The position numbers and the translations under genes were made by a program. The notes below the pieces were generated by a model, which saw only the letters and a program-made list of their open reading frames with translations, had not been told where the DNA came from and ran no database searches. 5,474 nt of DNA from a virus (taxonomy: Duplodnaviria; Heunggongvirae; Uroviricota; Caudoviricetes), in the IMG/VR virus record IMGVR_UViG_2698536677_000017; one strand, 5' to 3'. Shown in pieces: positions 854 through 5,474 of the stretch (the first letter of the stretch is position 1; each line of letters opens with the position of its first letter).

Positions 854-1569
854 TTACTTCACAACCCTCATATTGCTGACATTTGGACGCCAGCTATCCC
901 AGTTAAACGTCACCCATCGACCACCGTTCATGGTCATGCGGTCCATAATCCTCTCACCAAGAAGCGTACTCATTGCGGCATGATTCAGGTTTGTTAACAT
1001 CCCGACACTGCACAGTGATGCTGTCCGGCGATCAATTATCTGGTGCAATACCACCTGCTCGTTTTTCGTCTCCCGCTGAACGCCTATTTCATCCAGGACC
1101 AGCAAATCAACCCCGCAAAGCTCCTGTAAAAATTTTTCCCCGGATTTGCCGTTGTCGTAGCTGTCATGCAACACGCTCATGACGTCAGACACGGTGACGA
1201 TAATCACGCTGCGCCCCTTCACCATCAGCCGGTTGCCCATCGCCGCTGCAAGGTGATTTTTCCCGGTGCCACGGTCATCAGTTCGTCAGCTATGGATTTG
1301 GCCTGGCTCAGCGCGTATTTTTGCCCGTCGTTCTGCACCTGATAATTTGCAAACGAGCATTTGCTGTGCAGAGGCTGGATGCCCGAACGATTCAGGATTT
1401 TTTCCACCCGCAACTGGCGATTCTGGCGGTTAATCTCCTCGCTGCGTTTTCGTCCTTCAGCAAGTTGCCATTCCCGCCACTCCTCCACCGTCCGGTACGG
1501 TGGAACCGACCCCTGTGGTGCAAGTCTGCGAATACGTTCAAGAACCCCAACTGCCGCAATGTTTTTCAT
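854..1569 (-). pseudogene. DnaC-like helicase loader (phage replication protein, YdaV-like), disrupted by a frameshift in the Walker-A region
   Basis: Two overlapping minus-strand ORFs, 1225-1569 (N-terminal, ...NRSGIQPLHSKCSFANYQ...) and 854-1240 (C-terminal, ...VDLLVLDEIGVQ...MLTN...WVTFNWDS...), together cover a DnaC-like protein. The Walker-A core GTGKNHLAAA is encoded around 1238-1270 in the frame of the C-terminal ORF, but the N-terminal ORF reads through it out of frame (MTVAPGKITLQRRWATG then stop). The in-frame text just upstream (RTDDR) does not resemble the expected P-loop lead-in, suggesting an indel. Confidence 0.75.
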
Positions 1570-2560: not shown

Positions 2561-2986
2561 TTAGTGCATCACCACAGCATTCCCTGCCGGGCCGCCGCGA
2601 TTCATCTGGTCATACAAAACAACCGCTGACGCAACAAAATCATCGACATCCTTCACCAGCCGATCCCTCCGTTCGACGATCTCACGGTAATATTCAGAAC
2701 TGTGGCTGCGCATACGGGCCACCAGCAAAGGCGGCATCGCCTTTTCGATCGCCGGTAACAGAGCCTGCATTTTTTTAACAGCATCAGGGGTGTCTTTCTC
2801 TACCCAGCGGAAAATTTTCTGGGTATTACGGGCCAGGGCTTCCGGATGGCTGTCGTCATACAGTTCCGGGAACGTCATTCCCAGCTCGAAATACGCTTTG
2901 GTAATTTTCGCAGCCGGTACTTTTTCGCCGTCCGGATGCGCCCAGACATTCATCGCCATGCGGATGTGTTCATGCTTGATTTTCAT
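2561..2986 (-). CDS. YdaT-like protein (Rac-type early gene; described either as a CII-like regulator or as a putative toxin)
   Basis: 141-aa ORF beginning MKIKHEHI..., ATG start with GGAG 7 nt upstream. Its start overlaps the stop of the upstream Cro-like gene by 4 bp (ATGA). Position (cro-like, then this gene, then O-like, then DnaC-like) matches the Rac ydaS-ydaT-ydaU-ydaV order. Family call is from memory. Confidence 0.65.
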   Translation of the reverse strand: MKIKHEHIRMAMNVWAHPDGEKVPAAKITKAYFELGMTFPELYDDSHPEALARNTQKIFRWVEKDTPDAVKKMQALLPAIEKAMPPLLVARMRSHSSEYYREIVERRDRLVKDVDDFVASAVVLYDQMNRGGPAGNAVVMH

Positions 2987-3285
2987 GAATCAACTCCATC
3001 AGATAAGCATGTACTACAATCACCTTCAGCATGAACTACATGTGTTTGCCCCAAACGAATGCCGCTCGCATACTCAGGCCAAATAAGCTCCCAATCATGG
3101 GGTCGTAGCTCCGCCCTACTTACTTGGCCTTCCGTCGCAGATTCGATCATAAGGGCGCGGGTTGGAGATATAGCTGTTCGTCCAGACGCCATTTGCGATA
3201 AGTAAGATGGCGATACACCAAGTCTGGCCGCGAATTTCTTAGCATCACCAACCCTTAATGATTTAATAAACTCTTTTAATGTCAT
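2983..3285 (-). CDS. Cro-like HTH regulator, YdaS family
   Basis: 100-aa ORF, ATG (complement of 3283-3285) with GAGGAAGG SD just upstream. The motif LGVSPSYLSQMASGRTAISPTRALMIESATEGQVSRAELRPHDW is typical of the YdaS/Cro-like HTH family. First gene transcribed leftward from the divergent operator region. Confidence 0.8.
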   Translation of the reverse strand: MTLKEFIKSLRVGDAKKFAARLGVSPSYLSQMASGRTAISPTRALMIESATEGQVSRAELRPHDWELIWPEYASGIRLGQTHVVHAEGDCSTCLSDGVDS

Positions 3286-3382
3286 ACCTTCCTCGGTTTA
3301 GTGTTTTTTTGCGAGTTTAGTGTTTAATAAACCATTAAGTCAAGTATTTGCTTGTTTAGTGATTACTAAAGATAATTACCAC
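3286..3382. promoter_or_regulatory. Divergent operator/promoter region (OR-like) between the Cro-like gene and the repressor gene
   Basis: Seen in sequence: three copies of the half-site GTTTAGT at 3296, 3315 and 3354. Two sit in palindromic contexts: AGTTTAGT-gttt-AATAAACC (3314-3333) and TTTAGT-gatt-ACTAAA (3355-3370). Candidate rightward promoter: -35 TTGCTT (3348-3353), 17-bp spacer, -10 GATAAT (3371-3376), placing the transcription start at or next to the repressor ATG (3383). Candidate leftward promoter: -35 TTGACT (complement of 3338-3343), -10 TAAACT (complement of 3314-3319), 18-bp spacer. Confidence 0.6.
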
Positions 3383-3754
3383 ATGCAAAAAAAAGAAATT
3401 CGCCGTTTACGTCTCAAGGAGTGGTTTAAAGATAAAACTCTGCCACCCAAAGAGAAGAGCTACCTATCTCAACTAATGAGTGGGAGAGCCTCGTTTGGAG
3501 AAAAGGCTGCCAGAAGAATAGAGCAAACATACGGGATGCCGGAAGGGTATCTGGATGCGGAATACGCAGAACAACCGGGGGTTTCTCCACCACATGCAGG
3601 GTTAACGTCTAATCAACTGGAATTATTGCAGATTTTTTCAGCCTTCCCTGAGGATGAGCAACGCCAGATAATCAGCGAGTTAAAGCAGAAAAAAGAATCA
3701 ATGGAAGATCTCATAGCGAGATGGATTGCGGCGCAAAAATGCCGCCGCGCCTGA
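3383..3754 (+). CDS. Prophage repressor, short HTH protein, DicA/RacR-like (no S24 peptidase domain)
   Basis: ATG at 3383 chosen over the GTG at 3320 given in the ORF track, because the upstream extension would cover the operator/promoter sequences. The N-terminal segment EKSYLSQLMSGRASFGEKAARRIEQTYGMPEGYLD is HTH-like; the C-terminal segment LTSNQLELLQIFSAFPEDEQRQI resembles the DicA C-terminal region as I recall it. No SD precedes the start and the -10 lies 7 nt upstream, so the mRNA is probably leaderless. Confidence 0.75.
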   Translation: MQKKEIRRLRLKEWFKDKTLPPKEKSYLSQLMSGRASFGEKAARRIEQTYGMPEGYLDAEYAEQPGVSPPHAGLTSNQLELLQIFSAFPEDEQRQIISELKQKKESMEDLIARWIAAQKCRRA

Positions 3755-3774
3755 GTTATAAAACCGGAGGAAAC

Positions 3775-3966
3775 ATGAATAGAGCCCTTTCACCAATGGT
3801 TTCTGAATTTGAAACCATTGAACAAGAAAACAGTTACAACGAATGGCTGCGTGCGAAAGTAGCAACGAGCCTTGCAGATCCGCGCCCAGCAATTCCCCAT
3901 GACGAAGTTGAGCGCAGAATGGCAGAACGCTTTGCTAAGATGCGTAAGGAACGGAGCAAGCAGTAA
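3775..3966 (+). CDS. Type II antitoxin, ParD/RelB-like ('stability determinant' type), partner of the downstream ParE-like toxin
   Basis: 63-aa ORF (MNRALSPMVSEFETIEQENSYNEWLRAKVATSLADPRPAIPHDEVERRMAERFAKMRKERSKQ). ATG at 3775 with GGAGG (3766-3770) 4 nt upstream; the upstream ATG at 3721 overlaps the repressor and has no SD. The stop TAA (3964-3966) is 1 nt before the toxin ATG. Small, acidic-to-basic profile and position upstream of the toxin are typical of antitoxins. Confidence 0.7.
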   Translation: MNRALSPMVSEFETIEQENSYNEWLRAKVATSLADPRPAIPHDEVERRMAERFAKMRKERSKQ

Positions 3967-3967
3967 A

Positions 3968-4246
3968 ATGTTACCCGTGTTATGGCTTGAAAGCGCAGAT
4001 ACCGACCTAGATGATATAACTAGTTATATTGCTCGTTTCGACATAGATGCGGCTGAACGCTTATGGCAGCGATTAAGGGGTTGTGTGCTGCCGTTATCCG
4101 AACATCCGTATTTATACCCACCAAGCGACAGAGTACCTGGCTTGCGTGAGATTGTAGCCCACCCTAACTATATAATTCTATACCGCGTAACAACATCAAG
4201 CGTTGAAGTAGTAAACGTGATCCACGCAAGACGCCAGTTTCCCTAA
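3968..4246 (+). CDS. Type II toxin, ParE/RelE superfamily
   Basis: 92-aa ORF (MLPVLWLESADTDLDDITSYIARFDIDAAERLWQRLRGCVLPLSEHPYLYPPSDRVPGLREIVAHPNYIILYRVTTSSVEVVNVIHARRQFP). The pattern W..A..DL..I..YI...D...A, then PG.RE......YII.YRV, then V.VV.V.H.RR at the C-terminus is characteristic of ParE/RelE toxins. ATG at 3968, 1 nt after the antitoxin stop. The ORF-track start at 3872 would overlap the antitoxin and is rejected. Confidence 0.8.
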   Translation: MLPVLWLESADTDLDDITSYIARFDIDAAERLWQRLRGCVLPLSEHPYLYPPSDRVPGLREIVAHPNYIILYRVTTSSVEVVNVIHARRQFP

Positions 4247-4265
4247 CTTTCACTACCAATAGAAA

Positions 4266-4310
4266 CATAACAACCGCAACGACTTTATCAAAAGCGTTGT
4301 GTTTGTTATG
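4266..4310 (+). terminator. Long hairpin downstream of the toxin gene (terminator candidate, or a regulatory palindrome)
   Basis: Seen in sequence: CATAACAACCGCAACG (4266-4281) pairs with CGTTGTGTTTGTTATG (4295-4310) across a 13-nt loop, giving a 16-bp stem with one mismatch and one G-U pair. A T-rich run (GTTTAGTTTTT, 4319-4329) follows, but only after a 9-nt gap, so it is not a textbook intrinsic terminator. Confidence 0.4.
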
Positions 4311-4316
4311 CCCCGC

Positions 4317-4358
4317 GGTTTAGTTTTTACTTGACTTAAGTTTAATGTTTATTAAACT
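4317..4358 (+). promoter_or_regulatory. OL-like operator plus rightward promoter candidate (PL analogue) for the ydfA-like operon
   Basis: Seen in sequence: GGTTTAGT (4317-4324) is identical to the OR copy at 3295-3302. A perfect palindrome AGTTTAAT-gttt-ATTAAACT (4339-4358) closely resembles the OR site at 3314-3333. Promoter candidate: -35 TTGACT (4331-4336), 16-bp spacer, -10 TAAACT (4353-4358), with the -10 inside the palindrome. Confidence 0.5.
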
Positions 4359-4537
4359 AAAAATACCAACCCACCCCGCCCCACAGAACGCAGGGAAATA
4401 CTTCGAGTTACCCGGCAGTGGTCAGGGGTTAAGTAGCCAGCCCGAGGCGTATGAACATGACGGCGGGAACACTTTGTATAACAGCGCAGCAGGTTTTTTG
4501 TTCCGCTACCCCGGCGTTAAGGGGAAATGAGGTCAAC

Positions 4538-4690
4538 ATGGATACGCTCAATCTTGGCAACAACGAATCTCTGGTATGCGGTGTGTTCCCTAACCAGGAC
4601 GGCACCTTCACCGCGATGACGTATACCAAAAGTAAAACGTTTAAAACCGCAGCTGGTGCGCATCGCTGGTTAGCAAGAAACACTGACTGA
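4538..4690 (+). CDS. Small prophage protein, DUF1391 family (YdfA/YdaF-like)
   Basis: 50-aa ORF (MDTLNLGNNESLVCGVFPNQDGTFTAMTYTKSKTFKTAAGAHRWLARNTD). ATG at 4538 with GAGG (4529-4532) 5 nt upstream; the in-frame upstream ATGs at 4451 and 4457 lack an SD. Family recalled from the Qin/Rac small proteins ydfA and ydaF, which sit next to the repressor gene in those prophages. Confidence 0.65.
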   Translation: MDTLNLGNNESLVCGVFPNQDGTFTAMTYTKSKTFKTAAGAHRWLARNTD

Positions 4691-5223: not shown

Positions 5224-5474
5224 TTTATCCTCCATTGAGGTTACTGGTTGAGAATGGAGACCTCTCGTGACAGCGTGTGGTCGAGCGCCGGACACGGATA
5301 AGAATCCGGCACTGACAGTTTACTGAAAGGATATTTCCCTGAAAAGTCAGACCATAACGCGAAAGCGTACGGCGAGGTAGCTGGTTCATAGATAGCCTGT
5401 CGTTAAATTTTCGTCGACCGTGCGCTTCCGGTTGTGGCAATCCGCGAAATGGCGCGGCGGTAAGTATGGCGGGG

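Follow-up and report, generated by a model that had tools for sequence, protein, structure and literature searches.

The analyzed stretch of viral DNA, hereafter referred to as the window, comprises 5,474 nucleotides and, judging from its sequence, carries the paaR2-paaA2-parE2/ydaS-ydaT immunity region known from the prophage CP-933P (Sp12) of E. coli O157:H7 (Jurenas et al. 2021, mBio 12:e02947-21; PMC8630535). The plus strand encodes the repressor PaaR2, the antitoxin PaaA2 and the toxin ParE2 and, beyond the block at 4317-4358 that is the subject of this analysis, YdfA and a ydfC-like gene. On the minus strand, ydaS and the gene of the YdaT/CII-like protein are followed by genes for an O-like replication protein and a DnaC-like protein (Table 1). 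Residues 1-66 of PaaR2 are 100% identical to the PaaR2 N-terminal domain chains of PDB 7nkv/8c3k, and the paaR2 mRNA is leaderless (PMC8630535). The block starts 71 nt past the ParE stop codon (4246). The window shares 99.8% identity with the potC-adjacent prophage of E. coli ATCC 25922, in which the rightward operon goes on with dicF, dicB, an exonuclease gene, xis and int, and the same immunity region is found in phage Evi with 97.7% identity.

Table 1. Features of the immunity region and their positions in the window.
Feature	Position	Strand	Basis and remarks
YdaT/CII-like protein	2561-2986	-	
ydaS, Cro-like HTH second regulator	2983-3285	-	Pfam YdaS_toxin/HTH_3
Immunity cassette: ydaS, OR, paaR2, paaA2, parE2, OL/PL	3003-4362		mosaic boundaries (approximate)
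OR cluster, 97-bp ydaS-paaR2 intergenic region	3295-3371		motif sites 3315-3332 and 3354-3371; half-site GGTTTAGT at 3295-3302
PR promoter (PR933P)	3314-3343	-	TTGACT-18-TAAACT (consensus scan); points leftward into ydaS-ydaT
paaR2, CI-like repressor (123 aa)	3383-3754	+	phrog_5736 match (transcriptional regulator family)
paaA2, antitoxin	3775-3966	+	Pfam PaaA2, E = 1e-19
parE2, toxin	3968-4246	+	Pfam ParE_toxin; 100% identity to PDB 5cw7_B
Published PL933P-gfp reporter fragment, exact counterpart	4247-4364	+	primer matches
OL site A, GTTTAGTTTTTACTTGAC	4318-4335	+	left half-site perfect; right half-site ACTTGAC holds -35 hexamer; 2 mismatches
PL promoter (PL933P)	4331-4358	+	sigma-70-like TTGACT-16-TAAACT (consensus scan); points into leader and ydfA
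OL site B, 20-bp palindrome	4339-4358	+	18-bp core 4340-4357; spans promoter spacer and -10; 0 mismatches
PL transcript leader (putative)	4363-4537	+	87-89% identical in phages with other immunity
ydfA (DUF1391), first gene of the rightward operon in the window prophage	4538-4690	+	Pfam DUF1391, E = 1.6e-29

The first-pass annotation of the window had pointed out repeats that link the block to the region upstream of the repressor gene, and direct reading of the sequence bears this out. The octamer GGTTTAGT is present at both 3295-3302 and 4317-4324, positions 4339-4358 form a perfect 20-bp palindrome (AGTTTAAT-gttt-ATTAAACT), and the relative of this palindrome, AGTTTAGT-gttt-AATAAACC, lies at 3314-3333. 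A candidate recognition sequence had been proposed from these repeats. We scanned the window for it in the form GTTTARTN4AYTAAAC (GTTTARTNNNNAYTAAAC), allowing up to 3 mismatches and using 200 dinucleotide shuffles as control. Only four matches were obtained, two at OR (3315 and 3354, each with 1 mismatch) and two at PL (4318 with 2 mismatches and 4340 with none), compared to a mean of 0.79 in the shuffles, none of which (0/200) reached four, a result well above chance. The distance from the site at 3315 to that at 4340 is 1025 bp. Scans for the specificity of the motif covered the 40-kb genome of phage Evi, the 14-kb ATCC 25922 region and ~163 kb of homologous loci; in the complete Evi genome, sites with at most 2 mismatches are located only at OR (two) and PL (one).

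Direct and inverted repeat families connect the OR and PL regions. The -35 regions of PL and PR have 12 nt in common that match perfectly in inverted orientation (3335-3346 and 4328-4339), and the hexamers of PL lie at 4331-4336 (-35, TTGACT) and 4353-4358 (-10, TAAACT) with a 16-nt spacer in between. The PL operators overlap this sigma-70 promoter, which faces away from the repressor operon, and their half-sites embed both hexamers. The right half of site A is weak, with its 2 mismatches, and occupancy of this site may need cooperativity. An Rfam scan of the whole window (E <= 1) returned nothing but a chance miRNA match, so that the block does not represent any known RNA element.

The same element has been studied experimentally in CP-933P. 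Jurenas et al. described an additional promoter beside parE2, PL933P, with three operators (OL1-3) and with -35 and -10 hexamers identical to those of PR933P; their plasmid map gives the order PL933P-parE2-paaA2-paaR2-PRM-PR-ydaS-ydaT (PMC8630535). A PL933P-gfp fusion was active and was repressed ~100-fold by PaaR2 and by YdaS, in assays that used overexpressed regulators in a K-12 host without the prophage. The OR region contains 18-bp inverted repeats (half-site consensus GTTTAGTAA), and both proteins were examined there by EMSA and DNase I footprinting, with protected stretches of ~78 bp for PaaR2 and ~65 bp for YdaS that cover the OR repeats. That paper reports no EMSA, footprint or 5' RACE of the PL region, and in the literature searched we found no later work on PaaR2 binding at PL or on OL-OR looping. 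For PL, the paper gives three 'operators' and four inverted repeats, a numbering that our map of two sites may not match (PMC8630535).

The published primers F-PL-SacI and R-PL-BamHI (Table S3 of that study) match the window without mismatch at 4247-4267 (plus strand) and 4343-4364 (minus strand), respectively, and hence the reporter fragment contains the whole block at 4317-4358. When compared with O157:H7 strain OK1, this block is identical, and so is the surrounding stretch 4240-4464 apart from a C to T exchange at 4311, outside the operators. The OR region, PaaA2 and ParE2 are likewise identical, and PaaR2 and YdaS each differ from their O157:H7 counterparts in one residue (V67G in PaaR2). 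PL933P with OL1-OL3 and the window block are therefore the same element, base for base across 4317-4358, although they reside in different host prophages, the window being nearest to the ATCC 25922-type prophage adjoining potC. The leaders begin to diverge at ~4465 and the first genes at ~4528, with ydfA-type sequence in the window versus unassigned ORFs in CP-933P.

The first-pass annotation had read the block as a second operator cluster that overlaps an outward promoter, as an OL/PL analogue under control of the same repressor, and had suggested reporter fusions to the 4331-4358 promoter. This reading agrees with PL933P/OL1-3 and with the comparative analyses below, and the suggested experiment was already in print for the identical sequence, with the predicted repression observed (PMC8630535). 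An inference drawn from the letters alone was thus right, and the window is now tied to experimental data. Three refinements have to be made. The Cro-like YdaS represses PL as well; binding at 4318-4357 is something we infer from sequence similarity and from the repression of the reporter; and the ydfA operon is downstream cargo of the window prophage, the first genes in CP-933P being different. That PaaR2 controls ydfA, dicF and dicB in the window prophage is an extrapolation, since CP-933P has other genes past the leader. As the identity of the block and its control by the repressor were published in 2021, with a reporter, this part of our work is confirmatory.

We then compared the locus with those of PaaR2 relatives, comprising 80 viral loci and 27 loci of different species with 43-76% repressor identity, among them Xenorhabdus, Photorhabdus, Yersinia, Morganella, Raoultella, Erwinia, Massilia and Mycoavidus. 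The 27 species loci were scanned with the relaxed motif GTTTANTN4ANTAAAC at up to 1 mismatch. A site was found in the 160 nt preceding the repressor gene in 24 of the 27, typically at -68 and -29, and 65 to 1661 nt past the repressor stop codon in 21 of them; none of these loci had a site inside the repressor gene. Altogether, 55 sites were observed versus 0.5 in shuffles. In loci free of cargo, the block is located 65-143 nt past the repressor stop codon, a spacing that fits the published proposal that paaA2-parE2 was inserted into a pre-existing immunity region (PMC8630535). The paired operator/promoter design recurs with or without toxin-antitoxin cargo, and YdaS-like genes are also present in homologous loci.

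Alignment of 22 distinct downstream blocks revealed one layout throughout, with site A at the -35 and site B at the -10 hexamer. Site A, located ~22 nt upstream of site B, reads GTTTAnT-N4-ACTT(G/T)AC in the family, its right half being the -35 hexamer. Site B follows ~5 nt past site A and consists of GTTTAnTnnTTAnTAAAC and a T, so that the -10 hexamer TAAACT arises from its right half; its family-wide consensus across the 22 blocks is GTTTAnTa.TTAnTAAACT. As the half-sites contain the -35 and -10 hexamers, sites that are occupied must occlude the promoter.

Two groups of homologues deserve a remark on their own. In PaaR1-like loci (L056-L067; repressor 71-74% identical), an additional HTH gene (131-153 aa) is situated between the repressor gene and paaA/parE. 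The GTTTA-N8-TAAAC core is retained at the OR and PL sites of these loci, which differ at inner half-site positions (e.g. GTTTATACACAACTAAAT), differences that could underlie separate immunity from PaaR2 prophages in one cell. Some other homologues (L098, L100, L101, L103, L104, L107 and L108) are 209-222 aa in length, combining a PaaR2-like N-terminal domain with a longer C-terminal part, and keep the same operator motif and layout.

At close range, the block was found once per genome in 590 of 5426 complete genomes, in which it is unannotated. Among 51 E. coli-type loci with a PaaR2 of at least 98% identity, representing 26 distinct and closely related sequences, changes cluster at 4309-4317 and beyond 4358. 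The half-sites of site B are unchanged in all 51, with few changes in the central spacer (4347 and 4350), a pattern that weakly suggests a function of site B.

Comparison with phages that have other repressors delimits the region. For Tritos, 689R5, 640R1 and 666R9, all heteroimmune, the alignment to the window extends as far as 2991-3002 and resumes at 4363-4372, with no alignment in the interval. Since all four lose homology there, ~3003-4362 represents an exchangeable immunity unit, the right edge of which lies only 4-5 nt beyond the -10 hexamer of PL. Each of the four phages possesses its own repeat common to its OR and PL regions. At least two different sets of downstream genes are found next to one and the same combination of repressor and block: the 42-bp block is exact in 13 of 18 loci with CP-933P-type downstream sequence, and a second mosaic joint at ~4528, just before the first start codon, separates CP-933P/Evi-type from ydfA-type sequence. 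The operators are hence co-inherited with the repressor and not with the downstream operon, and the leader is common property. We had also considered a put-like antitermination RNA in this leader and dropped the candidate, as the fold of 4364-4545 was no more stable than that of shuffled sequences (z = +0.5).

Taken together, the stretch 4317-4358 is very probably the OL/PL control element of a lambdoid prophage with PaaR2 as its immunity repressor. The element consists of two adjacent 18-bp sites (4318-4335 and 4340-4357) of the GTTTA-N8-TAAAC type, like the OR sites, that are fused to a sigma-70 promoter, with TTGACT (-35) contained in the right half of site A and TAAACT (-10) made up of the right half of site B and one additional T. 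PaaR2, which presumably occupies 4318-4357 directly, would block RNA polymerase at these sites. In the lysogen, PaaR2 would silence PL together with PR, and the Cro-like YdaS can repress PL too. PaaR2 forms octamers in solution (cited in PMC8630535), and such octamers might loop OL and OR together over 1.0 kb. Once derepressed, PL would drive rightward transcription, probably from a start near 4365, through the conserved leader into the early-left operon, which in this prophage would extend over ydfA, the ydfC-like gene, dicF, dicB, the exonuclease gene, xis and int.

The finding that YdaS represses PL933P-gfp about as strongly as PaaR2, together with a YdaS footprint that overlaps the same OR repeats (PMC8630535), raises the question whether the block is mainly an operator for YdaS, with PaaR2 acting indirectly or only when overexpressed. 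However, leaky PaaR2 under glucose conditions already lowered the activity of PL933P, as it did for PR (PMC8630535), and the reporter host lacked the prophage and therefore contained no YdaS. The motif furthermore tracks PaaR2-type N-terminal domains across genera, even though YdaS-like genes occur in these loci, too. We hence regard a predominant role of YdaS as very unlikely.

A resemblance between 4317-4358 and 3295-3346 might also arise if a promoter alone had been duplicated, devoid of any operator function, and it is true that the -35 hexamer forms the centre of the longest exact match (12 nt) and that both promoters have the same hexamers. Yet a mere promoter copy does not account for ~100-fold repression by two DNA-binding proteins, nor for left half-sites that lie outside the hexamers and are nevertheless conserved from E. 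coli to Massilia, and the motif also occurs at 3354-3371, over the spacer of a different promoter, PRM. This explanation is thus extremely improbable. The position of the block directly after the toxin gene, in an AT-rich region, could finally hint at an autoregulatory site of PaaA2-ParE2 or at a chance repeat. But PaaA2 lacks a DNA-binding domain and regulation is exerted by PaaR2 (PMC8630535), the block is present in homologous loci without toxin-antitoxin genes, and a chance repeat is excluded by the shuffles, leaving either variant with a practically negligible probability. The preferred reading remains that of an OL/PL element controlled by PaaR2.

When compared to phage lambda, the design is alike in several respects. 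In both, two operator clusters with one common motif flank the repressor operon and each overlaps an outward early promoter, the maintenance repressor and a Cro-like protein both act on the operators, the interval from the repressor gene to OL accommodates accessory genes (rexAB in lambda and paaA2-parE2 in the window), and exchange involves the complete unit as an immunity cassette. The proteins and sites differ, however. PaaR2, which has no Pfam match, shows no detectable sequence homology to CI beyond the HTH fold. The lambda operator site is of 17 bp and its OL-OR distance amounts to ~2.4 kb, whereas the operator of PaaR2 is of the 18-bp GTTTA-N8-TAAAC type and the OL-OR distance is ~1.0 kb here. 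PaaR2 moreover lacks an autocleavage domain (PMC8630535).

The second system for comparison is the DicA/DicC-controlled dicB operon of the Qin prophage in E. coli K-12, and paaR2 has been noted to occupy the position of dicA (PMC8630535). Qin has an operon of the same type (ydfA, ydfC, dicF, dicB), and in both prophages the dicB-type operon comes directly after the gene in the CI position. The repressors belong to different families, the sequence of the DicA operator is different from that of the PaaR2 operators, and no toxin-antitoxin genes separate repressor and promoter in Qin.

The PL element sets which early-left genes of the prophage stay silent in lysogens, and by extrapolation the genes under PL in this prophage would include the division inhibitors dicF and dicB as well as genes for recombination and excision. 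The ParE2 toxin module sits within a phage immunity switch and is not self-regulated. We lean towards the view, with considerable reserve, that paired OR/OL sites with promoter hexamers in their half-sites are an ancient design of repressors with a PaaR2-type N-terminal domain, spread from Enterobacterales to Burkholderiales, to which paaA2-parE2 was added later as cargo, and that PaaR2 silences dicF/dicB in ATCC 25922-type prophages. If true, this would extend the 2021 study and overturn nothing in it. The comparative generalization is the sole new content of our analysis and is incremental.

Several further features were observed in the window. Between the parE2 stop codon and the operators, 4266-4310 can form a long imperfect hairpin (~18 bp, -20 to -23 kcal/mol, z = -3.8), which may terminate or insulate the paaR2-paaA2-parE2 transcript. 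Since no U-run directly follows its stem, we refer to it as a candidate and not as a proven terminator. A terminator of textbook form occupies the corresponding position in phage 689R5. At the other end, the last 193 nt of the window (5282-5474), located ~90 nt upstream of dicF (ATCC 25922 copy: Rfam 76.7 bits; locus L001, 8665-8716), show 95-97% identity in Evi, Tritos, 689R5 and 640R1 and may belong to the dicF precursor or to a control region of dicF's own.

On the side of the leftward genes, the sequence TTGATTTTCATGAATCAA at 2976-2993, at the ydaS/ydaT junction, is an exact match to the main operator OM of YdaT, TTGATT-N6-AATCAA (PMC9986795), and the only one in the window. In the DnaC-like gene (ORFs 854-1240 and 1225-1569, minus strand), the window lacks at 1266-1270 31 nt that are present in ATCC 25922. 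The loss, in the context GGTGCC|GGTTTTACC...GTGCACC|CGGTCATC, shifts the reading frame of the DnaC-like ATPase close to the Walker A motif. The 30 complete-genome matches listed, out of 1,232 matching records, all align in two pieces and thus do not carry the deletion. The window copy may be defective in replication, or else the deletion may stem from the assembly. Inside the O-like gene, at ~2135-2195 on the minus strand, we noticed by eye four TTGACGGGTCAAC-like repeats spaced ~15 nt apart, which look like origin iterons within a replication initiator gene, as in the lambda ori.
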